From NCBI GenBank assembly GCA_040755235.1, contig JBFMBJ010000001.1:1-48055 (forward strand): a stretch of DNA of 48,055 nucleotides, read 5' to 3'. The notes below the pieces were generated by a model, which did not search any database, was not told the origin of the DNA, and saw nothing but the letters and a program-made list of their open reading frames with translations. Position numbers and translations under genes: made by a program. Source of the DNA: Candidatus Omnitrophota bacterium. Lineage in GTDB: Bacteria > Omnitrophota > Gorgyraeia > Gygaellales > JBFMBJ01. This document shows positions 10,483 through 28,141 of this stretch, one piece after another. Each line of letters starts with the position of its first letter. Position 1 is the stretch's first letter.

Positions 10483-12909
10483 ATGACTAAGATTTGTTTC
10501 ATAATTGATAATTTAAAGATAGCGGGTGCGCAGAGGCATCTTTTAAGATTGACCAAAGGATTAACCAACAGGGGGTATTCTCCAGAGGTTATTTCCCTTG
10601 GCATTAATGATGAAAATTTAATTAAAGAGATAAAGGCGCCATTGGCTACATTTAAAATGGATTGTATCTGGAGGATGAGTTTTTGGCTGAATTTTATACA
10701 GTTAATTAAATTTATTTCTAAGCAAAGGCCGGTAATAGTCCATACTTACCTTAATACTTCTAATGTCTTTGGGGTTTTATCTGCTAAAATTGCTAAGGTT
10801 CCCATTATTTTCTCCTCGCGCAGAGATTTAGGCCAATTCCGCTCGAGGTTAATTGGCTTGTTAGAGCGTTTTACTGCACATCTTAGCGATAAAGTTGTTT
10901 GTGTTTCCAATGCTGTTCAAAATCATGTTATTGATTCAGAGCGAATTAGTAGAGAGAAAACGGCTGTTATATATAATGGAGTAGACGTAGATAGTTTGCG
11001 AGTTAACGAGTTGACGAGTTGGCGAGTTAGAAAAGAAATCGGAATAGGTGAAAATGAATTAGCAGTTGGAATGATAGCGACGATGGACAGGGAAGAAAAG
11101 GGGCATAAGGAATTCATTGAAGCAGCGGGTTTGGTTGTAAAAGAAATTCCGAACGTCAAATTTCTGCTTATCGGCGACGGTTTTCTTCGTCAAAAGTTAG
11201 AAAACGCAATACGTGATACCTGCCTTGCCGGCAGGCAGGCGCATGACGCAATACGAGGCAAAGTTTTATTTCTTGGTAAACGTAACGGCATACCAGAATT
11301 ATTATCCACAATGGATGTGTCGGTGAACGCTTCATATTCAGAAGGAATGTCCAATACAATTTTAGAGTCTATGGCAGCTGGAGTGCCAGTAGTAGCTACA
11401 GCAATAGATGGCAATCTCGAAACTGTCAAAAGCTTACAGTTTGATTACAGTGATTTAGATAAAGATTACAGTGATAAAAATTGTGCAACTGGGATACTCG
11501 TGCCGCCAAAAGAGCCACAAGCTATGGCAAAAGCTATTATAAAGATACTTAAAGATAAGGAATTAGCTGTGAAGATGGGTGAAAACGCGAGGCGATTAGT
11601 TTACGAAAAATTCTCTCTTGAAACAATGGTGAATAATTACGCTAAACTTTATCAAGATTTATCCGCGCCAATCCGCGTCCAAAACAATCCGCGCCAATCC
11701 GCGTCCACAGTGGGTTATATCGTTTCTCTTTTTCCCTGTTGGTCAGAAACCTTTATCTTAAATGAAATAATAGAGTTAAAGAGAAAAGGTATTGAAGTGA
11801 CTATATTCTCTATAAGAAAAGATTTGGAAGCATTTATTCAAGAGAAGTCAAAACTGCTTATAAAAAATACAATATATCCAGAAAAGCCAGGTGTATTTAG
11901 GTCATTTGTATTTTGGGCTGTAAGAAAACCAGTGACATTGCTTTCAATTTTCTGGTTGGTTGTCAGTAAAAGATATTCAAGCTCAAAAGTTCTACTTAAG
12001 AACATCTGGTGTATTTTTGTCGGTTGCTACTTTGCTACTATTGTAAAAAAAGAGAATATCAAAAACCTCCATGCACATTTTGCAACCTACCCAACTTTAG
12101 TAGCTTTGGTCATATCAAGATTGACTAAGATTAGTTATACTTTTACCAATCATGCTCATGACATATTCTTAGAAAAAGCTCTTTTAAAAGAAAAATCCAG
12201 AGATGCAAAAGCCATAGTTGCTATCTCAAATTATAATAAGCAATATCTGGATAATATTTGTCAAAATGGAGTTATAGATAAGACGCACGTCATTCATTGC
12301 GGCTTAGATTTAGCTGAATTTGTTAATTTAAACGTCAAGCATAAAGATAATACGATTTTGAGTATCGGCAGATTAACCAAAATGAAGGGTTTTGAATATC
12401 TTATTAAAGCTTGCAATCAAATTAAAAATCGCCTGCCTGTCCAATGCCGCATAATTGGCGATGGTCCTTTGAATGATGAATTGGAAAGGTTAATTATTAA
12501 TTTAGGAGTAAGGAGTAGCGTAAAATTAAAAGGGGTAACGGACAACAGTGAGATTAAGCAATTATTACAGGAAAGTGCTGTATTTATCATGTCCAGCGTC
12601 TGGGATGAGCAGGATGGCCAAGATGGCATCCCGATCGTATTAATGGAGGCAATGGCAGCAGGCGTGCCGGTGATAGGTTCAAATATTTCAGGCATACCCG
12701 AATTGATCCAGGATGGTCAGACAGGGCTGTTGGTTGAGCCAGGCAATGTTGTAGATTTGGCAAAGAAGATTGAGCTTTTGTTGAACGATAAAGATTTGCA
12801 GGCTCGCTTAGCTAAAGCAGGCAGGCGTAAGGTTGAAGAGGAATTTGATATTCATAAGAGTGTAGAGAAGCTAATTGAGGTATTTAACTTATCGAGCTGT
12901 CATACATAG
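10483..12909 (+). CDS. Two GT4 glycosyltransferase modules in one ORF (tandem fusion through a repeat linker)
   Basis: Module 1 has SEGMSNTILESMAAGVPVVATAIDGNLE. Module 2 starts like a complete WcaL-type GT (VGYIVSLFPCWSETFILNEIIELKRKGIEV) and has DGIPIVLMEAMAAGVPVIGSNISGIPELIQDGQTGLLV. The junction is the 21-nt direct repeat at 11661-11707. An in-frame GTG at 11710 could be an internal start. Confidence 0.8.
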   Translation: MTKICFIIDNLKIAGAQRHLLRLTKGLTNRGYSPEVISLGINDENLIKEIKAPLATFKMDCIWRMSFWLNFIQLIKFISKQRPVIVHTYLNTSNVFGVLSAKIAKVPIIFSSRRDLGQFRSRLIGLLERFTAHLSDKVVCVSNAVQNHVIDSERISREKTAVIYNGVDVDSLRVNELTSWRVRKEIGIGENELAVGMIATMDREEKGHKEFIEAAGLVVKEIPNVKFLLIGDGFLRQKLENAIRDTCLAGRQAHDAIRGKVLFLGKRNGIPELLSTMDVSVNASYSEGMSNTILESMAAGVPVVATAIDGNLETVKSLQFDYSDLDKDYSDKNCATGILVPPKEPQAMAKAIIKILKDKELAVKMGENARRLVYEKFSLETMVNNYAKLYQDLSAPIRVQNNPRQSASTVGYIVSLFPCWSETFILNEIIELKRKGIEVTIFSIRKDLEAFIQEKSKLLIKNTIYPEKPGVFRSFVFWAVRKPVTLLSIFWLVVSKRYSSSKVLLKNIWCIFVGCYFATIVKKENIKNLHAHFATYPTLVALVISRLTKISYTFTNHAHDIFLEKALLKEKSRDAKAIVAISNYNKQYLDNICQNGVIDKTHVIHCGLDLAEFVNLNVKHKDNTILSIGRLTKMKGFEYLIKACNQIKNRLPVQCRIIGDGPLNDELERLIINLGVRSSVKLKGVTDNSEIKQLLQESAVFIMSSVWDEQDGQDGIPIVLMEAMAAGVPVIGSNISGIPELIQDGQTGLLVEPGNVVDLAKKIELLLNDKDLQARLAKAGRRKVEEEFDIHKSVEKLIEVFNLSSCHT
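10993..11030. repeat. In-frame octamer array (NNCGAGTT x4), copy a
   Basis: agtttgcgagttaacgagttgacgagttggcgagttag encodes SLRVNELTSWRVR. It is 35/38 identical to 13945-13982 in a paralogous GT4, whereas the flanking coding DNA is much less similar. Confidence 0.85.
11204..11255. repeat. In-frame ACGCAATACG pair (42-nt spacing) around a GC-rich hairpin
   Basis: acgcaatacg occurs at 11204-11213 and 11246-11255. The central cctgcc-ttgcc-ggcagg lies at 11219-11235. The segment encodes AIRDTCLAGRQAHDAIRG in a GT4 linker that is normally shorter. Confidence 0.8.
11443..11475. repeat. In-frame GATTACAGTGAT direct repeat, 21-nt period
   Basis: Perfect 12-mers at 11443-11454 and 11464-11475 encode DYSD twice, inside the GT4 E...G loop. 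The reverse complement atcactgtaatc occurs at 18878-18889. Confidence 0.85.
11661..11707. repeat. Perfect 21-nt direct repeat (atccgcgccaatccgcgtcca x2, 5-nt spacer) at the GT4-GT4 junction
   Basis: Units at 11661-11681 and 11687-11707. Each unit is itself two ATCCGCGNCA decamers. The region is translated as SAPIRVQNNPRQSAS. Confidence 0.9.
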
Positions 12910-12991
12910 TCATAGGTAGTCATAAAATGGTCATACAATTGTAAAAGATACTATAAGTATATTGTAATAAATAGTCATACATTGTAAAAAG
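12899..12991. repeat. GTCATA array (left flank of 4HB cassette 2)
   Basis: GTCATA at 12899, 12909, 12919, 12930 (10-11 nt phasing) and 12974. gtcatacaattgtaaaag and gtcatacattgtaaaaag are near duplicates. Stops occur in all three + frames, and the stop of the upstream GT (12907) lies inside the array. Confidence 0.85.
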
Positions 12992-12995
12992 GAGA

Positions 12996-13385
12996 ATGGA
13001 ATTGGCGGGAGATATAAGAGATTTTGATGATTTGGAAGTATATCAGCTGGCTTTAGAATTGGCAGATTGGATATATGATTTAACAAGCAATTTTCCTAGT
13101 GAAGAAAGGTTCAATGTTACCTCGCAGATAAGGGATGCTGCAACTTCAATTGGCGCAAATATAGCCGAAGGCTATGGTCGGTTTCACTATAAAGAAAACA
13201 TTCAATTTTGTAGACAAGCAAGAGGCTCTTTATCTGAGACAAAGCACTTTATGATTTTTAGCAATAAACGCAAGTATATTTCTGATGATATTTACAAAGA
13301 ATTTTTACAAAAATACAAGCAATTACAAATAAAAATTAACAATTATATTAATTCAATTGGTAAGAAGAATAGTGACGATGTATGA
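12996..13385 (+). CDS. Four-helix-bundle protein (23S rRNA IVS protein / Avd-like family)
   Basis: DFDDLEVYQLALEL..., RDAATSIGANIAEGYGRFHYKENIQFCRQARGSLSETKH. SD aaaggag lies 5 nt upstream. Confidence 0.85.
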   Translation: MELAGDIRDFDDLEVYQLALELADWIYDLTSNFPSEERFNVTSQIRDAATSIGANIAEGYGRFHYKENIQFCRQARGSLSETKHFMIFSNKRKYISDDIYKEFLQKYKQLQIKINNYINSIGKKNSDDV

Positions 13386-13417
13386 CAACATTTGACAATG
13401 GTATGACAATATATGAC
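13381..13417. repeat. TATGAC array (right flank of 4HB cassette 2; inverse of the GTCATA array)
   Basis: TATGAC at 13381, 13402 and 13412, plus TTTGAC at 13391 (10-11 nt phasing). The 4HB stop TGA 13383-13385 lies in the first unit. Confidence 0.85.
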
Positions 13418-14548
13418 GATTCACGTGCTTCGGCGCGAAAAATTAACATCCTGCACGTGATTTGGTCCTTAGAAAAAGGCGGCGCGGAAAGATTCTTGGT
13501 TTTGCTGGTTAAAAATTTTGACCAAAGCCGTTTCAATTCCATTGTTTGTTGCCTTAATTGGAAAGGCGAATGGGCAAGCGAACTTGAGGAAAAAGGAATC
13601 AAGGTTATTGCCTTAAATAAAAAAGGTAAGTTCGACATCTGTGTAATCTATAGAATAATCTGTGTAATCAGACAATATAAAATTGATATTGTAAATACTC
13701 ATCTTTGGGCAGCAGATTGCTTAGGAAGGGTTGCGGCTATTTTTGGGGGAGTGCCCATAATTATAAGCACAGTCCAAAATGTAGATATCTGGAAGAAGTT
13801 TTGGCATAAAATCATAGATAAGATGTTGGCGAACCGAACAACCAAATTTATTGCAGTTTCAAAAGCAGTTAAGGAGTTTTTGATTAATACAGAAAAGATT
13901 CCTGAAGAAAAAATTGAGATAATACCGAATGCGATTGATGCAGAAAGTTTGCGAGTTAACGAGTTGGCGGGTTTGCGAGTTAGAGAAGATTTAGGGATTA
14001 AAAACGAAGAGATAGTGCTGACTGTAATTGGAAGATTGGTTGAACAAAAGGGCCATAAATATTTGTTTGAAGCCTTGAGTATGCTGGATGGCAGGTATAG
14101 AGTGAAATTACTGGTGGTTGGTGATGGGCCGCTTAGAGAAAGTTTACAGTTTAAAGTTAACAGTTTACAGTTAGAGAATAAAATTCAATTCTTAGGGCAG
14201 AGAAGAGACATGGCAGAAATATTTAATGCGAGTGATGGTGTGATTTTGCCTTCGCTTTATGAGGGGTTGCCTGTAAGCATTTTAGAGGCGATGGCTGTTG
14301 GTAAGCCTGTAATCGCAACAGATGTTGGCGGCACTTGCGAACTTGTTAAAGATGGAGAAACTGGATTTTTGGCACAAGCAAAAAACAGCAAAAGCTTAGC
14401 ATCTAATATAGAAAAACTTTTAACTTCACCAGATAAAGGAAAAAAAATGGGAGAGAGAGGCAAGGAATTGGTTAATAATGCCTTTTCTATACAGGCTATA
14501 GTTAAAAAAACAGCAGATTTATATCTCTCACTTCTCGGTAACGGTTAG
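13382..14548 (+). CDS. Family 4 glycosyltransferase
   Basis: INILHVIWSLEKGGAE..., YEGLPVSILEAMAVGKPVIATDVGGTCELVKDGETGFL. The first ~15 codons (MTTFDNGMTIYDD) are a translation of the TATGAC array, so the true start is probably downstream (ATG 13403 or later). Confidence 0.8.
   Translation: MTTFDNGMTIYDDSRASARKINILHVIWSLEKGGAERFLVLLVKNFDQSRFNSIVCCLNWKGEWASELEEKGIKVIALNKKGKFDICVIYRIICVIRQYKIDIVNTHLWAADCLGRVAAIFGGVPIIISTVQNVDIWKKFWHKIIDKMLANRTTKFIAVSKAVKEFLINTEKIPEEKIEIIPNAIDAESLRVNELAGLRVREDLGIKNEEIVLTVIGRLVEQKGHKYLFEALSMLDGRYRVKLLVVGDGPLRESLQFKVNSLQLENKIQFLGQRRDMAEIFNASDGVILPSLYEGLPVSILEAMAVGKPVIATDVGGTCELVKDGETGFLAQAKNSKSLASNIEKLLTSPDKGKKMGERGKELVNNAFSIQAIVKKTADLYLSLLGNG
13637..13669. repeat. 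In-frame ATCTGTGTAATC direct repeat, 21-nt period
   Basis: Perfect 12-mers at 13637-13648 and 13658-13669 encode ICVIYRIICVI. Confidence 0.85.
13945..13982. repeat. In-frame octamer array (NNCGAGTT-type), copy b
   Basis: agtttgcgagttaacgagttggcgggtttgcgagttag encodes SLRVNELAGLRVR. It is 35/38 identical to 10993-11030. Confidence 0.85.
14141..14172. repeat. In-frame AGTTTACAGTT direct repeat, 21-nt period
   Basis: Units at 14141-14151 and 14162-14172 encode SLQFKVNSLQL. They share the TTACAG core with 11433-11475. Confidence 0.8.
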
Positions 14549-18891: not shown

Positions 18892-19596
18892 ATGTTAAAA
18901 ATCTTAATGTATCATTCTGTCGGTTCGCTGAACTTAAGCGAAGTCGGCACAGAGCTTTATTCTGTCTCTGAAGAGAACTTCCGTCAGCAAATGAATTTTT
19001 TGCGCAATGCGCACGACGCAATACACAATACGCTAATAACCTTCGATGACGGCCTCCTCGACAACTACACAACTGCTTTTCCGATTCTTAAGGAGTTTGA
19101 CATTAAAGCATATTTTTTTATTCTAACTTCTAAGGTCAGGGAAGAGGGGTACATGAATTGGGAACAGATTAAGGAGTTGCATAATGCAGGCATGACAATT
19201 GGTTCACACGGGATGACGCACAGACTTTTAACTGAATTAAGCGAGAATGAATTATATTATGAATTATCCCAGTCTAAGAAAATACTTGAAGATAATTTAA
19301 GCCAACCTGTTGAGAATTTTTCAATTCCCAGAGGATTTTGTAATAAAAGAATAGAAGAAGCAGCAAAGAAAATTGGCTACAAAGCAATTTTTACTTCTAA
19401 TATCAAGGATAACAATGGGTTTAGAATCGGCAGAATCCCGGTAAAACGCGATTGGGATCTTAATCATTTTAAAAGTGTTTTGAATAATGGACTGTCTCCA
19501 AGAGAAAAAGTGGAGGAATTTGTTAAGCGTATAAGCAAGGAATTCCTCGGCGCAAGGGTTTACGATAAGATTAGGAGTAGGATTCTTAGTAGATAA
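18892..19596 (+). CDS. Polysaccharide deacetylase (NodB homology domain)
   Basis: ILMYHSV, ITFDDGLLDNY, GSHGMTH. The start was moved to ATG 18892 because the 7 upstream codons translate a repeat. Confidence 0.8.
   Translation: MLKILMYHSVGSLNLSEVGTELYSVSEENFRQQMNFLRNAHDAIHNTLITFDDGLLDNYTTAFPILKEFDIKAYFFILTSKVREEGYMNWEQIKELHNAGMTIGSHGMTHRLLTELSENELYYELSQSKKILEDNLSQPVENFSIPRGFCNKRIEEAAKKIGYKAIFTSNIKDNNGFRIGRIPVKRDWDLNHFKSVLNNGLSPREKVEEFVKRISKEFLGARVYDKIRSRILSR
19002..19033. repeat. In-frame copy of the GCGCAATRCGCACGACGCA...CAATACG dispersed repeat
   Basis: 27/32 identical to the intergenic copy at 23597-23628. It encodes RNAHDAIHNTL. The same AHDAI peptide is encoded at 11236-11256 in a GT4. 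Confidence 0.8.
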
Positions 19597-19598
19597 GA

Positions 19599-19646
19599 GT
19601 CATAAGTAGTCATAAGGTAGTCATACAATGGTCATAAATTGTCATA
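19599..19646. repeat. GTCATA array (left flank of the toxin-antitoxin cassette)
   Basis: GTCATA at 19599, 19609, 19620, 19631 and 19641 (10-11 nt phasing). It is visibly alignable with 12909-12945. Confidence 0.9.
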
Positions 19647-19761: not shown

Positions 19762-20022
19762 ATGACAATTACAATGACAGCAAAGAATCAAATAACCATA
19801 CCTAAGAAGATCACAAATGCTTTGGGCTTAGGGAAGGGGTCTATGTTCGAGGTAGAGGTCTCTAGAGATGGGATAGAGCTTATTCCTCTGGAGACAAAAG
19901 AAAGGCAGTTCACAGATGAGGAATACGTGAAATTAGAGACCCTTGCAGCCAAAGAAAAGGGGAAAGAAAAACATGTAACAAAAAGGTTCATCGATAATTT
20001 AAAAAAGGGAAAATCTAATTAA
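19762..20022 (+). CDS. AbrB/MazE/SpoVT-family antitoxin
   Basis: MTAKNQITIPKKITNALGLGKGSMFEVEV (swapped-hairpin motif). It overlaps the downstream gene by 1 nt (TAATG). Confidence 0.75.
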   Translation: MTITMTAKNQITIPKKITNALGLGKGSMFEVEVSRDGIELIPLETKERQFTDEEYVKLETLAAKEKGKEKHVTKRFIDNLKKGKSN

Positions 20023-20330
20023 TGTCTTTACGCCTTTATTACAGGCCTTCTTTTAAAAGAAGCATCAAGCGTTTAGGATATGAACAGAAGAAAACAGTAG
20101 GACTGATAATTGAATCTTTAGCTGTTTATTATTCTCGTGAGTGTAATCTGCTAGAGGCACAAAAGATAGCACCACGATTTTTTTATAAACAACTAAGAAA
20201 GCCCTATTATGAAGCCGGTATCGAAGGAACCATCCGAGTGATTATAAGACGAGAGGGTGAAAATTGTATTGTAGTATTAGCCGGGAATCATGACCAAATA
20301 AAACAATTTCTGGCCAGCGTACAGTGTTGA
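20022..20330 (+). CDS. Putative type II toxin (RelE/ParE-like small basic protein)
   Basis: Size, position after the AbrB antitoxin and translational coupling support the call. YRPSFKRSIKRLGYEQKKTVGLIIESL resembles RelE/ParE N-termini. The family assignment is tentative. Confidence 0.5.
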   Translation: MSLRLYYRPSFKRSIKRLGYEQKKTVGLIIESLAVYYSRECNLLEAQKIAPRFFYKQLRKPYYEAGIEGTIRVIIRREGENCIVVLAGNHDQIKQFLASVQC

Positions 20331-22357: not shown

Positions 22358-22751
22358 TTAATTTTGAAAGTCAATACTTTCAAAAATTGGCATTTCATTT
22401 AAAGAAAAACAAATTGAACAATTCTTAAAGTCTGCCTTACATGACATTAAGATTGCCGAAACATCTGATATTCCGGATGTTATTTTTAAATTCAGTTATG
22501 ATGCTTTGTTAAAATTAGGCATTGCGTTAATTGCAAAGAAGGGTTATAGAGTGAGAAGCGCAACAGGCCATCATATTAAGATATTAGAGAAACTTAGTCA
22601 GATACTTAAAGAAGAAGATATTATTGTTCTTGGCAATAAGATGCGTCAGGAACGCAATATTAATCTTTATGATGGCGGCTTTGTAGTAGGGGAAAAAGAC
22701 ATCCGGGAGTATCTAATTTTTGTAAAAAGTATTTTCAAAAAAGGTAATTGA
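22354..22751 (+). CDS. HEPN-domain protein, reading frame broken near the 5' end (-1 shift at an A5 run)
   Basis: ATG 22354 overlaps the MNT stop (ATGA) and reads MINFESQYFQK. The HEPN-like sequence IGISFKEKQIEQFLKSALHDIKIAE...GHHIKILEKL continues in the -1 frame from 22386. That frame has no ATG/GTG/TTG before 22506. Confidence 0.55.
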
Positions 22752-22753
22752 AA

Positions 22754-23566
22754 ATGAATAAAGCTAACATTGGTAAATTAGTAGCATTAGCTGGATTAAC
22801 TGCGCTTGCCTACATTCCTACCTTTGCCTGGATGATTGGCAGATGGACTGCCAAAGATACATATTACAGCCATGGTTTTTTAGTGCCATTAATTAGTATT
22901 TTTTTAATTTGGCAAAAGAGGCAAGATTTAAAGAAACTAAAGATTAAGCCTTCTAATCTTGGCTGGGTATTTTTTGGCTCTGGTATATTAATTCATGCGA
23001 TAAGCGCGTTATGGAGAGTGTATTTCTCGTCGGGATTTTCTTTAATTATAGTTCTAATCGGGCTGGTTTTATTATTTTTAGGCAAGGAATTTTTAAAAGA
23101 AACTTTATTCGCAATACTTTTCTTCGCCTTTATGATTCCTTTACCTCTGGTTGCTATTGCCAACATAAGTTTTAAACTAAAAATTTTTGCCGCTAAAATT
23201 TCAACCGTTATCATTAATAAATTAGGCGTTCCGGCAATAAGAGACGGCAGTGTGATAAAAACAATGCATTCTTATTTGGTAGTAGAGGACCCTTGCTCTG
23301 GGATAAGAAGCTTAATTGCTCTTATTGCCCTGGGTGCATTGATGGCATATTTTAGTAACATTTCCAAGCTTAAAAAGACAATTCTTTTTATATCCTCAAT
23401 TCCTATCGCAATCGCAACAAACGTAATCAGGATAGTTACTTTGTCGTTAGTAAGTGAAATGTATGGAGCGAAATTAGCAACCGGTACATTTCATAATATA
23501 ATGGGTGTTTTGGTTTTTGTCTTTGCATTTATTGGTCTGGCCTTGATAGCCAAGATCCTGGAGTAG
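22754..23566 (+). CDS. Exosortase (EpsH/Xrt family transpeptidase)
   Basis: YYSHGFLVPLISIFLIW, catalytic-Cys motif EDPCSGIRSL, NVIRIVTL, and multiple TM helices. Confidence 0.9.
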   Translation: MNKANIGKLVALAGLTALAYIPTFAWMIGRWTAKDTYYSHGFLVPLISIFLIWQKRQDLKKLKIKPSNLGWVFFGSGILIHAISALWRVYFSSGFSLIIVLIGLVLLFLGKEFLKETLFAILFFAFMIPLPLVAIANISFKLKIFAAKISTVIINKLGVPAIRDGSVIKTMHSYLVVEDPCSGIRSLIALIALGALMAYFSNISKLKKTILFISSIPIAIATNVIRIVTLSLVSEMYGAKLATGTFHNIMGVLVFVFAFIGLALIAKILE

Positions 23567-23569
23567 TAG

Positions 23570-23630
23570 CATATCGTGTATAGCGTATTGAGTATTGCGC
23601 AATACGCACGACGCACAACGCAATACGAAA
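23570..23630. repeat. Cargo-less palindromic element of the CGTATTG / CAATACG family
   Basis: The left half is cgtattgagtattgcg and the right half is cgcaatacgcacgacgcacaacgcaatacg. The central perfect 14-bp palindrome gtattgcgcaatac lies at 23592-23605. Confidence 0.85.
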
Positions 23631-23643
23631 ACATGAAGAAAAT

Positions 23644-24267
23644 ATGAACCAGAAATCTTTTATTTTTGTAATCATAATTCTGATTGTCGTCGGAATTATG
23701 AGTCTAGCTTCATACTTGCCGACGAGGACCGATGCTGCCTTGAAAGTTAAGGTAGAGAATTTCCCCAAAGAAATCGGCGAATGGAAAGGTGTAGATATTC
23801 CTGTTTCCGAACAGGATTACGCAATTTTGGAAACCAGAAATCTTTTTGTGAGGAATTACAAAGACAAAAAGGACGAGTCAGTATATTTATACGTAATTTA
23901 TTCTGAAGATAACCGTAAAGTAAGCCATCCACCGGAAATCTGCCTTTTAGGTAGTGGAATGACCATAGTTAATAAATCCACGGTTAGAATATCAAATCTT
24001 GTAAAGGCAATTAAATTAATTGTTGAAAAAAAATATGTGCAGGAGATGGTTGTCTATTGGTTTAAAGCAGGCAATCTTTATACTGAGAATTATCTTAAGC
24101 AGCAACTCAAAATTGTTACTGACCGCATGTTGAGAAAGAGGACCTCAGGTGCTCTTATCAGAATTTCTACAGTGATGAAAGAGAATGAGCGAGAGGAGAC
24201 TTCTTTAGAATTGATTAAAAGGTTTGCCGCCCAAATCCAACCGCTGCTGCCCGAATACGTTCCCTAA
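23644..24267 (+). CDS. EpsI-family exosortase-associated protein
   Basis: N-terminal anchor, FPKEIGEWKGVDIPVSEQDYAILE...VYLYVIYSEDNRKVSHPPEICLLGSGM. It lies directly after the exosortase gene. Confidence 0.8.
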   Translation: MNQKSFIFVIIILIVVGIMSLASYLPTRTDAALKVKVENFPKEIGEWKGVDIPVSEQDYAILETRNLFVRNYKDKKDESVYLYVIYSEDNRKVSHPPEICLLGSGMTIVNKSTVRISNLVKAIKLIVEKKYVQEMVVYWFKAGNLYTENYLKQQLKIVTDRMLRKRTSGALIRISTVMKENEREETSLELIKRFAAQIQPLLPEYVP

Positions 24268-25450: not shown

Positions 25451-26061
25451 TGAGAAAAATAATTGTGTTAGGGATAATAAGTTTAATAATTAGTTTATAT
25501 GGTGTAAATCTTTCATATGCCGTGCCGCCGCCATCTTCCTTTTTGGATTTTATTAACTTGTCAGGCAGCTATTTACAATTGCAAGATGGGACATATCTTT
25601 ATTCTTATACTTTGAGTGCAGGTGCTGCTTATGGAACGCCAGGTTCAGGTTTGAGCCATTGGTGGCTTGAACTTTTAGAAGAAAAAATCCCTACCCTAAG
25701 TAATTTTAATCCTGATGATCCTAATTCCACTGATGACGTGGAGACATATTTTAATGAAAATCACGGGCCTTCTGGCTTATTTACTACTTTAGGCAATCCC
25801 TTTAATGGCTTTCATTATGGAGCGAAATGGGATTATGAAGATTTAATTACTTATTCTTTTATAAGTACTCATGGTCCGGTGTTAGATGAATATGGAAATG
25901 TAGATTTTGGGGCGTATTCTTGGATGGCTAAAGGTGGTCAATATTACGATTTTGGCACAACCTTAGGACCAAACGGGATAATCCCTGAACCGGCAACAAT
26001 GTCACTTCTAGGATTAGGATTAATTGGCTTACTCCGGCTTAAAAAGAAGAAAAATAGATGA
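25450..26061 (+). CDS. PEP-CTERM sorting-domain protein
   Basis: Signal peptide, then C-terminal IPEPATMSLLGLGLIGLLRLKKKKNR. Confidence 0.9.
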   Translation: MRKIIVLGIISLIISLYGVNLSYAVPPPSSFLDFINLSGSYLQLQDGTYLYSYTLSAGAAYGTPGSGLSHWWLELLEEKIPTLSNFNPDDPNSTDDVETYFNENHGPSGLFTTLGNPFNGFHYGAKWDYEDLITYSFISTHGPVLDEYGNVDFGAYSWMAKGGQYYDFGTTLGPNGIIPEPATMSLLGLGLIGLLRLKKKKNR

Positions 26062-26783
26062 AAAAGATTTTCTTTTTATATCTTATTGTTTTATTTTTAT
26101 CATTTTCCCAGCCAGCATTTGCCTATTTTATTGGTAACGAAATAACTACCTTAAATGGCATATATGGTTCATCTTGGGATGGTTCGAGCAATGAATTATG
26201 GGATGTCTTATCTGCAAACGGTTACACTGCTTTAGCGAATGATGTCCAAACCGATGTCTCAGGGGGGACGCCGTCTTCAAATTATCACGTTTACAAGAAT
26301 ACCTATTGGAAATCTGCCGGCTATTATTCTTTAATGGTTGATGAGGTTGCTGCCTATTCTCCTTATAGCAGTTTTGGTTGGTATATAAAAAATCATTCTG
26401 GTGACGTAGGCGATCTCAGCAAAACTACCTGGGGTGAGATTTTTTCAGGAGCAAATTCACAAGGCGCTACATTTGGTTTTTTTAATCCGAACGAAATAGG
26501 TTTTTGGATTAATCCTAACGGAGCTTCGGGCCTTTATTATTTTACTGATACTTCTCTTAATGGAGGAGATTTACAAGCCCTGGTGTTTTCTTTAAATGGA
26601 TATGGTGGTTTTGGTGATGACTACTTAATTGCTTTGGAAGACTTAAAATTTTCCGGATGGACGGACAATGATTTTCAAGATATGATTATCCGGCTTCGTC
26701 CAATTATTCCTGAGCCTGGCACAATGTCACTTTTGGGGTTAGGTTTGTTAGGAGTATTTGGTTTTAGAAAGAAGAGAAGTTAA
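26058..26783 (+). CDS. PEP-CTERM sorting-domain protein with a DUF4114-like segment
   Basis: Signal peptide ending in AFA. DNDFQDMIIRL motif. C-terminal IPEPGTMSLLGLGLLGVFGFRKKRS. Confidence 0.9.
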   Translation: MKKIFFLYLIVLFLSFSQPAFAYFIGNEITTLNGIYGSSWDGSSNELWDVLSANGYTALANDVQTDVSGGTPSSNYHVYKNTYWKSAGYYSLMVDEVAAYSPYSSFGWYIKNHSGDVGDLSKTTWGEIFSGANSQGATFGFFNPNEIGFWINPNGASGLYYFTDTSLNGGDLQALVFSLNGYGGFGDDYLIALEDLKFSGWTDNDFQDMIIRLRPIIPEPGTMSLLGLGLLGVFGFRKKRS

Positions 26784-26815
26784 TAAAATCTAAATAAGGG
26801 AGGTGAAAAAAATAA

Positions 26816-27391
26816 ATGAAAACCGTAAAAATATTGACGGTAGTTTTTGGTATGCTGCTCATGTTTGGTACGTTAGCCAATGCAGGTATCGTAGATGTTA
26901 TAGAGTATCCAACGGGTTATTTTGCTCCGGGTGCTACTACTTCTTCGCCGTATTATCGCTGGTGGGATGAAGATTGGGGTTGGGCTCATAATCCAATCGC
27001 AGGCTCGATAACAACTGCAGAGCTAAGTATCAGCGCCTATGATGTTGATGCTCCCAGTGAAGTTGATAATATCTATGCCTGGGAAAATGGTGGCTGGACG
27101 CTATTAGGCAACCTTGCTGGCTTGAATAATGATTGGGGATATACAACCTTTAATCTTGGTTCTGAATTCTTTGATGAAATTGCAGCAGGTCTTCAGGTTT
27201 ATATGGACATAGACACAACTCATACTTATAACTATTGGGCAGTGACTCTTGCAAAATCAGCACTTTCAATTAACGGTGGAACAATACCTCCTCCGTGTCC
27301 GGGTTGTGGAGTTATTCCTGAGCCAGCAACAATGTCATTGTTAGGTTTTGGTGTTTTGGGTTTGTTTGGTTTAAGAAGGAAGAGAAGTTAG
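26816..27391 (+). CDS. PEP-CTERM sorting-domain protein
   Basis: SD gggaggtg. Signal peptide ...TLANA. C-terminal IPEPATMSLLGFGVLGLFGLRRKRS. Confidence 0.9.
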   Translation: MKTVKILTVVFGMLLMFGTLANAGIVDVIEYPTGYFAPGATTSSPYYRWWDEDWGWAHNPIAGSITTAELSISAYDVDAPSEVDNIYAWENGGWTLLGNLAGLNNDWGYTTFNLGSEFFDEIAAGLQVYMDIDTTHTYNYWAVTLAKSALSINGGTIPPPCPGCGVIPEPATMSLLGFGVLGLFGLRRKRS

Positions 27392-27396
27392 TTGAA

Positions 27397-27435
27397 CACG
27401 AATTCTCACGAATTACACACTAATTTTCACGAATT
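27397..27435. repeat. CACGAATT x3 intergenic motif array
   Basis: cacgaatt at 27397, 27407 and 27428 (spacings of 10 and 21 nt). Confidence 0.8.
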
Positions 27436-27487
27436 ATCAGCGAGTTTAAAAAGCCACGGAGATTTCAAAAGAAGGAGGTGAAAAAGA

Positions 27488-28141
27488 ATGAAGAAAGGTC
27501 TAATATGTTTAGCAATACTCCTGGGCGTTGGTATGTTTCTATCTATGCAAACAACAGCATCAGCTTGGATAGAAATAACTGATCCTCTGCTAATAGGAGG
27601 AATAGTTTATGCTCCTGGTTCTAATCTACCAGGTGAACCATTGACAACAGTGGTTGTTGCTCCTACTGGCTCGGTTACAATCGGTTCCTTTGCTCTGGAA
27701 GGAGATTCTCAGCCTATAGGTTGGAAAGGAATTGGAGTGCCACTTGCTCCATTAGGTTATGCCCCTGGTTATCAGTTCGCATTTGATGATAGTTTCCTTA
27801 CTTGGGATTCCAGTTACTACGATGAATTTTACGGAGTCCTTACTCAGGGAGACTACATCTGGAACGGCGGTTTAGTGTTGGGTGGTTTTACTTTTGGCGG
27901 TCTCACTGAAGGTGGATTGGAGGGTATAAATAATCCTTGGCAGATGCAGGGCAGTTTTTTGGTTGACCCTAACTATGATTATTTCTTGAATATAGTTCTT
28001 CGCACGTCATATGATGAACAACTACCTTCTTGGGGACTATTCAGCGATGTGTCAGTTCAGGTCATCCCTGAGCCGGCAACATTGTCATTGTTAGGATTTG
28101 GCGTTTTGGGATTATTTGGCTTAAGGAGGAAAAAATCCTAG
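27488..28141 (+). CDS. PEP-CTERM sorting-domain protein
   Basis: SD aaggaggtg. Signal peptide ...TTASA. C-terminal IPEPATLSLLGFGVLGLFGLRRKKS. Confidence 0.9.
   Translation: MKKGLICLAILLGVGMFLSMQTTASAWIEITDPLLIGGIVYAPGSNLPGEPLTTVVVAPTGSVTIGSFALEGDSQPIGWKGIGVPLAPLGYAPGYQFAFDDSFLTWDSSYYDEFYGVLTQGDYIWNGGLVLGGFTFGGLTEGGLEGINNPWQMQGSFLVDPNYDYFLNIVLRTSYDEQLPSWGLFSDVSVQVIPEPATLSLLGFGVLGLFGLRRKKS

Follow-up and report, generated by a model that had tools for sequence, protein, structure and literature searches.

Degenerate heptamer arrays in intergenic spacers and enzyme loops of a Candidatus Omnitrophota bacterium

The DNA analyzed here, a stretch of 48,055 nucleotides from Candidatus Omnitrophota bacterium (contig JBFMBJ010000001.1 of assembly GCA_040755235.1; hereafter the window), contains a polysaccharide deacetylase gene that carries a short repetitive sequence within its reading frame. 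Similar sequences lie in the spacer between an exosortase gene and a DUF3485 gene and inside a gene for a GT4 glycosyltransferase. The source assembly, designated G000, comprises 1.39 Mb in 230 contigs with 34% G+C and is 75.7% complete. The original prediction, made from the letters of the window alone, held that one repeat of about 32 nucleotides is coding in two unrelated enzymes and intergenic elsewhere, a proposal that is supported by our analysis and extends far beyond the window. Direct sequence comparison bears out the predicted identity of 27 of 32 bases between positions 19002–19033 (deacetylase) and 23597–23628 (intergenic), the sequences being as quoted. Inclusion of two additional upstream bases (TTGCGCAA) gives 29/34 by eye, and the best 32-base window on this diagonal reaches 28/32. 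The resemblance also retains its significance under proper statistics, on which the prediction had been made to depend: the real window contains six direct 32-mer pairs that match at 27 or more of 32 positions, compared with one pair in total across 12 first-order Markov simulations.

The repeat is not a unit of about 32 nucleotides as had been supposed, but a degenerate tandem array of 7-base units. The array at 19000–19033 has a self-match of 0.62 at period 7 and of no more than 0.37 at any other period, and the program TRF calls period 7 at 23598–23627. Both copies consist of about three to five heptamers arranged head to tail. The deacetylase copy, the intergenic copy, and a third, inverted array that adjoins the intergenic copy each match (CGCAATA)4 at 24 of 28 positions. 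The intergenic copy forms the right arm of a two-armed module. The left arm is G/T-rich and begins just past the stop codon of the exosortase gene at 23566; the right arm has an A/C-rich sense strand, and 15 bases separate its end from the ATG of the DUF3485 gene at 23644. The order is therefore G/T-rich arm first and A/C-rich arm second, and because the two arrays adjoin one another, joining at TTGCGCAA, the 77-base spacer between the stop and start codons is almost wholly occupied by the module. Predicted RNA folds were no better than those of shuffled sequences for the module (23560–23640; -19.5 kcal/mol, z -1.51), the deacetylase copy (18980–19060; z -0.64), or the GT4 copy (11196–11266; z +0.41). 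An Rfam scan of the whole window returned nothing at the gathering score, and near the intergenic copy only a snoRNA with an E value of 7.6.

The deacetylase has the features of a NodB-type enzyme, namely a PF01522 domain, the aspartates of the TFDDG motif, and two histidines; D52, D53, H106, and H110 are invariant in an alignment of its homologs. Many of these homologs, which are 50–61% identical, carry Omnitrophota names, and solved relatives include 6dq3 and 4wcj. The array encodes residues R38–L48, which immediately precede T50-F-D-D-G54. In an AlphaFold2 model of the protein (pLDDT 89.3), R38–L48 form the end of a helix that spans residues 27–39 and a short helix at residues 41–45, followed by a strand at residues 47–51. 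The array occupies the hypervariable linker that connects helix 1 to the TFDDG strand; indeed, the interval from the F..QM.YL helix to ITFDDG is the sole hypervariable part of the alignment. Distant homologs contain a canonical stretch (L..nGY..vsl.el...) of ~25–31 residues after the helix, compared with 13 residues in the deacetylase of the window, and 6dq3_A has roughly 25 residues between the helix and TFDD. The segment between the MYHSV and TFDDG motifs had been described as shorter than usual, which holds in relation to these distant proteins but not within the close subfamily, where a short segment is typical. Array-free close relatives (L003–L005, L047, and L050) have only 8–10 residues in the linker, such as LRGKDVVI. 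The canonical segment is absent from all close relatives, these array-free ones among them, and the repeat therefore did not cause its loss.

Arrays of differing units occupy the same linker in other deacetylases. Period-7 or period-8 arrays were found in 10 of 31 rows with at least 46% identity; linker arrays include (CGCAAAA)n in L033, (GTACACG)n in L045, and (CGACAACG)n in L032, and L002 and L006 carry several arrays together. In L086 (39% identity), CGCAATA CGCACGA CGCAATA CGAGAT encodes LRNTHDAIRD. The peptides of two further homologs, LRNTHNAIHDTK in P0004 and LRNTQYTIHNTQ in P0116, are what related arrays would encode, the arrays here being read back from the peptides. Conservation of AHDAI in distant homologs had been named as a finding that would speak against a repeat, and the result is mixed. 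An AHDAI-like peptide does recur in three homologs (L086, P0004, and P0116), but most homologs are without it, the same DNA array encodes it in L086, and the four rows do not form one clade. Moreover, relatives with the same DNA array yield other peptides, such as RNTQYTIHNTQ. On a tree of 57 rows from which the linker columns had been excluded, the four rows with CGCAATA-type arrays require four changes, and an approximately unbiased (AU) test rejects their placement in one clade (log-likelihood difference 172.5, p 8e-76). The type of array in this slot was not inherited as one clade.

The GT4 gene was predicted to contain a shorter version of the repeat. The string in question, gcgcatgacgcaatacgagg, is real and encodes AHDAIRG in the same register as the deacetylase; it lies at 11239–11258, however, ~3 bases from the start that had been given. 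A second ACGCAATACG is located 42 bases upstream, at 11204, and a GC palindrome lies at 11219–11239. Together these elements form a hairpin-plus-array module, which contains the GT4 copy and lies at a site known to vary. Between the motifs GDG..L and v.F.G, the encoded protein is 9 residues longer than 28 of 29 homologs from the phylum, and the 29th (L251) also carries an insert at this position. The palindrome word GCAGGCAGG occurs 20 times, compared with 1.2 expected. Full GC palindromes are present at six or more loci of G000, several with flanking heptamer arrays; the 20-base form CCTGCCTGCCGGCAGGCAGG is found at C58:3963, C61:6787, C159:380, C195:852, and C59:4092 in addition to the window. 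Words that resemble the palindrome also adjoin arrays in L002 and L308 of other Omnitrophota. A second GT4 gene in the window (13382–14548) contains (CAGTTTA)n at 14138–14173, read in frame (…SLQFKVNSLQLENK…), and this array occupies the same GDG-to-FLG slot as the module in the first GT4 gene. Elsewhere, the two GT4 genes have in common a 29/32 stretch, AGTTTGCGAGTTAACGAGTTG(A/G)CG(A/G)GTT, at 10981–11020 and 13934–13973. This stretch resembles a period-8 array, TTRACGAG, and is read in frame after an NGVD motif.

Table 1 Positions of the arrays in the window and of the genes that contain or flank them
Feature	Position	Strand	Details
Double-domain GT4 glycosyltransferase gene (P0002)	10483..12909	+	808 aa; PF00534, PF13439, related families
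In-frame GT4 module	11204..11258	+	Array ACGCAATACGTGATA, palindrome CCTGCCTTGCCGGCAGGCAGG, array CGCATGA CGCAATA CGAGG; encodes NAIRDTCLAGRQAHDAIRG
Polysaccharide deacetylase gene (P0003)	18892..19596	+	234 aa; PF01522, E 8.5e-28
Deacetylase array	19000..19033	+	TTG CGCAATG CGCACGA CGCAATA CACAATA CGC; encodes L-RNAHDAIHNT
Exosortase (EpsH-type) gene, upstream of the intergenic module	22748..23566	+	PF09721, E 2.1e-63
Intergenic left arm	23572..23599	-	CGCAATA CTCAATA CGCTATA CACGATA on the minus strand
Intergenic right arm	23597..23628	+	CGCAATA CGCACGA CGCACAA CGCAATA CGA
DUF3485 gene, downstream of the intergenic module	23644..24267	+	PF11984, E 8.2e-38

A count of genomic copies, which had been suggested as a check, gives a twofold answer. 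Within the 1.39-Mb assembly, the only sites that differ from either 32-mer at 8 or fewer positions are the two copies themselves and the inverted arm (23569–23599). The genome does, however, contain a large population of period-7 arrays, which the original prediction had overlooked together with the inverted left arm (23572–23599). Period-7 arrays are in strong excess in G000: four-unit windows with a self-match of at least 85% number 25 for period 7, compared with 0–4 for periods 5, 6, and 8–11 and 0–1 in shuffles, so that an excess over neighboring periods is found genome-wide. With TRF at a low threshold, calls of period 6 outnumbered those of period 7 (1003 vs 524). Owing to the loose threshold and the AT-rich genome, this result was set aside and the stricter self-match count was used.

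A looser cut (16 of 21) yields 89 period-7 arrays in G000. Most of these lie in spacers, often as pairs in which a G/T-rich arm follows a stop codon and an A/C-rich arm shortly precedes the next start codon; 64 of the 89 fall outside, or at the edge of, crude calls of open reading frames (ORFs) that cover 92% of the genome. A sizeable minority is read in frame in variable loops or linkers of ordinary and essential enzymes. Nineteen of the 89 arrays are located 40 or more codons deep within long frames, where the A/C-rich strand is the sense strand in 12, the other strand in 3, and the assignment is ambiguous in 4. A Pfam family was found for 13 of 15 array-bearing frames scanned outside the window. 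These families include pyruvate-ferredoxin oxidoreductase (POR_N), PheS, a GltD-like oxidoreductase, MnmE, NAD(P)H-hydrate dehydratase, aspartate-semialdehyde dehydrogenase (Asd), LeuRS, an AIR-synthase-type protein (AIRS), and HisRS. Unit types in G000 are many and include CGCAAAG, AAATCCG, CAAAACT, and ACGACGA. We considered and rejected a role of the arrays as phase-variation (contingency) repeats, which require perfect repeats that switch a gene on and off; the units here are degenerate, and arrays are read in frame in LeuRS, PheS, and HisRS, where an off state would presumably be lethal.

The types of unit are genome-specific. G061, a genome that is 96% complete, contains (CACAGTC)n at seven or more loci, all in sense inside long frames, with hosts that include a GT4 glycosyltransferase, a deacetylase, and LeuRS. 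A search for (CACAGTC)n found none in G000, G157, or G228. Large ORFs of G061 also hold (CAGCCAT)n and (CACAGAT)n arrays, and in another genome, G233, a two-armed array module lies within an apparent carbamoyl-phosphate synthase large subunit.

LeuRS illustrates how coding arrays occupy variable slots and are translated as part of the protein. The loop from MRIVI to EAYEGDG aligns in register with no extra segment in 29 of 30 Omnitrophota orthologs. Eight of the 30 encode this loop with a period-7 array (self-match of at least 0.5), each with a unit of its own, among them AAATCCG in G000, CACAGTC in G061, and CTATCGA, ACCAACG, and ACCATCG in three others. Two further orthologs appear array-like by eye. 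The DNA of the loop has thus been replaced without a change in length, an outcome beyond the reach of single-unit slippage in an essential gene. These findings bear on the suggestion that the repeat arose by replacement rather than by simple insertion. The LeuRS arrays do replace a loop at unchanged length, but the GT4 module is a net insertion of 9 residues, and the canonical segment of NodB-type deacetylases is gone irrespective of the array.

The compound unit of the window recurs in other phyla. The core 22-mer, represented by the pattern CGCAATRCGCACGACGCAMWAC, has at least 120 exact matches in species-representative genomes. Among the 80 loci listed, about 48 belong to Planctomycetota, 19 to Omnitrophota, 5 to Atribacterota, and 5 to Bacteroidota, with one each from Aegiribacteria and Clostridia. 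With at most one mismatch, the 22-mer is present in 19 of 401 Omnitrophota genomes at 1–11 copies each, compared with 0 of 401 for a reversed control; no match was found in 2.9 million viral contigs. Only ~30 bases around the 22-mer are conserved among the matches listed, and their flanks are unrelated. No conserved ends or target duplications were seen; only the array is conserved. In two pairs of nearly identical loci compared by eye (L132/L141 and L126/L156), the order and number of units differ.

Foreign matches, like the arrays of G000, tend to lie in spacers close to start codons. A co-oriented ORF begins within 150 bases downstream in 58 of the 81 matches listed, and 13 of these end 4–6 bases from the start codon. 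For the 57 listed non-coding matches with full flanks, a co-oriented start lies within 40 bases downstream in 28, compared with 11 in a reverse-strand control (p 0.009, with some loci not independent of one another). An inverted arm lies upstream in 25 of the 81 matches listed. The left-arm word of the window, GCGTATTGAGTATTGCG, is found with at most one mismatch upstream in 6 of 74 foreign loci listed and downstream in none; the arms retain conserved mismatches rather than compensating changes. Ten of the 81 matches listed lie inside long frames, and their hosts, according to motif reading (L116–L184), are presumably similar to AlaRS, DNA polymerase I, KdsB, MurE, YggS, a MiaB-like protein, and a GltD-like protein. 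As regards strand and frame, a check also suggested at the outset, all 10 are in sense, and all three frames are used (RNTHDAIR or RNTHDAQQ in four, TQYARRNT or a near form in five, and NAIRTTQY in one). A reading of the sequence indicates that the element is free of stop codons in all six frames.

Mismatch repair by MutS and MutL normally blocks recombination between unlike short repeats. The domains of MutS (PF00488) and MutL (PF01119) were not found in G000 at its completeness of 75.7%. MutS was not found in G061; within the order, 9 of 71 genomes yielded it, or 9 of 54 when high-quality genomes are considered. We also observed that genes for four-helix-bundle proteins of the PF05635 family are frequently flanked by arrays in G000. 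Of 10 such genes, 7 have period-7 or period-8 arrays on both sides; random 160-base segments reached the same array cut in 4 of 400 cases. A general link between the 22-mer and these genes was dropped, however. A phmmer search found 1 match in the 80 foreign loci listed, and two motifs of four-helix-bundle proteins had no match among 94 candidate ORFs at foreign loci listed. The arrays that flank such genes in G000 are of other units. In the window, inverted arms (GAGTAGA)n at 546–576 and (CTCTCTA)n at 945–974 bracket a PF05635 gene (604–918) with an in-frame TAG. Short-period arrays of the GTCATA type lie just past the stop codons of the GT4 and deacetylase genes (12906–12945 and 19596–19635) and match one another at 28 of 32 positions; the first of these and an inverted partner at 13373–13417 bracket another PF05635 gene (12996–13385, E 4e-35).

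The 32-mer is neither a mobile unit of 32 bases nor a conserved peptide motif. It is one copy in a dispersed heptamer family, (CGCAATA/CGCACGA)n, that on balance probably spread by templated copying and is tolerated in permissive linkers. Arrays would be written into permissive places by copying from one array to another, through ectopic conversion or template switching, and would be modified by slippage; the same processes would keep arrays alike within a genome. Such spread would be eased in a lineage mostly without MutS-type mismatch repair, and at sites where frame or length counts, selection would eliminate copies that alter it. The peptide that an array encodes would be a tolerated passenger without a catalytic role. 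Spacer copies, to judge by their position and orientation, may affect the mRNA next to start codons. The opposing idea, that the two enzymes resemble one another by chance or have a functional AHDAI peptide in common, might appeal to the identical register of AHDAI in the deacetylase and GT4 and to the confident placement of the segment in an ordered helix by the AF2 model. It has been largely refuted and is barely credible, given that the match exceeds chance in the simulations, most homologs lack AHDAI, the same DNA array specifies other peptides in relatives, and the same DNA is read elsewhere in the two other frames. Growth in place presents a more substantial alternative. Here, slippage of a local seed in a repair-poor lineage would generate each array, and nothing would be copied between sites. 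Bacteria are known to accumulate heptanucleotide simple-sequence repeats in excess through mutation, according to two reports (PMC4679880, PMC4692102), MutS is scarce in the order (9 of 71 genomes), and unit order and number vary between L132 and L141 and between L126 and L156, all as slippage would have it. We nonetheless consider this explanation unlikely in its pure form. A step of +7 or -7 breaks the frame of an essential gene, yet the LeuRS arrays add no segment. The same compound 22-mer, built of unlike neighboring units, occurs in 120 or more places with unrelated flanks, against none of 401 genomes for the reversed control. One unit type dominates many loci of a single genome, and one array type occupies the same slot of deacetylases that are not sisters.

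A functional signal in RNA or DNA would account for the placement of many copies. In this scheme, the arrays are cis-acting sites near start codons, bound perhaps by a cold-shock, S1-like, or four-helix-bundle protein, or they form an intercistronic hairpin, and the coding copies are incidental. The co-oriented starts within 40 bases (28 of the 57 usable non-coding matches listed vs 11 on the reverse strand, p 0.009), the 13 listed matches that end 4–6 bases from a start codon, the window copy that ends 15 bases before the DUF3485 ATG, the preservation of the exact sequence across phyla, and the array flanks of 7 of 10 four-helix-bundle genes in G000 all point in this direction. TAACTGA heptamers are similarly placed, and a translational role has been proposed for them in the available text of that work (PMC4679880). 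The scheme is rather improbable all the same: folds predicted for the three copies are no better than shuffles (z -1.5, -0.6, and +0.4), the arms keep conserved mismatches and show no compensating changes, Rfam offers no family, the element occurs in just 19 of 401 Omnitrophota genomes, and a start-codon signal hardly accounts for copies that lie within enzymes and are read in all three frames. A miniature mobile element of the REP (repetitive extragenic palindromic), MITE (miniature inverted-repeat transposable element), or Rickettsia palindromic element (RPE) kind, mobilized by its own transposase or a comparable enzyme, is very unlikely. Arrays are dispersed, two-armed, sometimes accompanied by a GC palindrome, patchy among genomes, and in frame in housekeeping genes, as RPEs are. 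Against these likenesses stand the lack of visible conserved ends or target duplications, the failure to find a Y1/RAYT (REP-associated tyrosine transposase) gene in G000, the absence of matches in 2.9 million viral contigs, the 1 in 80 foreign loci listed with an adjoining four-helix-bundle gene, and the LeuRS replacement at unchanged length, which does not fit a cut-and-paste mechanism.

Several observations weigh against the spread by templated copying that we favor. The CGCAATA type is confined within G000 to three or four sites of this window and therefore gives thin support to spread within the genome. G233 has MutS yet carries arrays in genes. No copying enzyme or template was found in G000, which is 75.7% complete; the Y1 (RAYT) transposase domain PF01797, for which a control search matched 6 of 14 genomes, and the reverse transcriptase domain PF00078 were both sought there without success. 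Some of the matches in odd phyla may be binning errors; L141 is nearly identical to L132. Finally, identity of the 22-mer across phyla could reflect selection on function rather than copying. The same searches led us to reject two specific candidates in this incomplete genome, namely a REP element with its RAYT (no PF01797) and the target of a diversity-generating retroelement (no PF00078, and no longer template copy seen). A bolder version of templated copying is a long shot. A template-guided, trans-acting process would write genome-specific 7-base arrays into permissive DNA, including the loops of essential enzymes, with length preserved, and the CGCAATA/CGCACGA template would move between phyla, which would explain why Planctomycetota, Omnitrophota, Atribacterota, and Bacteroidota have this compound unit in common. 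The array-flanked four-helix-bundle (Avd-like) genes and the loss of mismatch repair might both have some connection with such a process.

Comparison with known repeats reveals both likenesses and differences. Borg tandem repeats create disordered protein regions, and those within genes are perfect and have unit lengths divisible by three. They resemble the present arrays in lying both between genes and in frame within genes; the present units differ in being 7 bases long and degenerate. The RPEs, said to have been described by Ogata and colleagues in 2000, are reportedly ~100–150 bases in length, are not tandem heptamers, and are confined to Rickettsia. They too are dispersed palindromic repeat DNA read in frame at permissive sites of housekeeping genes with no known transposase, and in-frame copies inside housekeeping genes are what we found here. 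The present element conserves only ~30 bases with unrelated flanks and does not contain a long fixed palindrome; the likeness is one of behavior and not of family membership. The STRR repeats of heterocystous cyanobacteria are tandem repeats of period 7.

The published systems closest to ours are heptamers, which we compare on the basis of the available passages of the papers concerned. Direct repeats of TAACTGA in marine Beggiatoaceae, Cyanobacteria, and Bacteroidetes (MacGregor 2015, PMC4679880) form short tandem arrays, most of them in spacers and within a few bases ahead of a start codon; they are scattered over distant phyla with no known vector and sometimes occur in ORFs, at the periphery of proteins. 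The present unit differs from TAACTGA, is compound (CGCAATA/CGCACGA), and has no stop codon in six frames, and it is read in the middle of enzymes in all three frames, often with an inverted arm. GGGNATC-type repeats of Xanthomonas and Nostoc (Rehm 2015, PMC4692102) are likewise heptamer arrays, with a preference for about four units, located between co-directional ORFs. The arrays described here are without G-tracts, and quadruplex formation would consequently not be expected. An excess of heptanucleotide long simple-sequence repeats (LSSRs) in prokaryotes was noted by Mrazek et al. (2007), as summarized in PMC4679880. LSSR and STRR repeats are alike in the general excess of period 7, for which slippage has been proposed as the cause; they differ in that particular compound units here recur exactly across phyla and in that arrays fill conserved protein slots without a change in length. 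The palindromes of REP elements associated with RAYTs are marked at one end by a conserved tag, GTAG or CGTC, according to the available text of PMC3733652, and no such tag is evident in the ~30-base consensus of the matches listed, for which no systematic check was made.

Heptamer excess and heptamer arrays near start and stop codons are thus already in print, as the passages available from PMC4679880 and PMC4692102 attest. What is added here is a compound unit that is shared exactly across phyla and read in each of the three frames, the turnover of array content at unchanged length in conserved slots, and a tree test against a single origin. Within a limited literature collection, we found nothing on heptamer arrays in Omnitrophota or on in-frame heptamers in housekeeping genes, and an 11-base part of the element searched as an exact string returned unrelated papers only. 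The in-frame arrays in enzyme loops show that repeat DNA can rewrite small parts of proteins. If short arrays are copied into conserved enzyme slots and into spacers, uncultured bacteria with small genomes would continually acquire new peptide linkers and 5' leaders by this route; the arrays would also introduce errors into alignments, phylogenies, and gene calls for these groups. Plain slippage does not readily account for a compound unit that recurs exactly across phyla or for a LeuRS loop replaced at unchanged length, and together these findings render the question of why heptamers are abundant in bacteria directly testable. Should template-guided copying prove true, it would constitute a previously unrecognized mechanism by which short segments of proteins and of operon spacers are rewritten.

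The window has two further features. At 19762–20330, a MazE-type antitoxin gene (PF04014) precedes an ORF of 102 residues without a Pfam match, and this pair stands between the deacetylase gene and a GT2 gene of the polysaccharide operon. Three paralogous small genes at 25981–28100 have in common a near-identical stretch, I-P-E-P-A-T-(M/L)-S-L-L-G, that resembles a PEP-CTERM signal, so that the window contains both PEP-CTERM-like paralogs and an exosortase gene.

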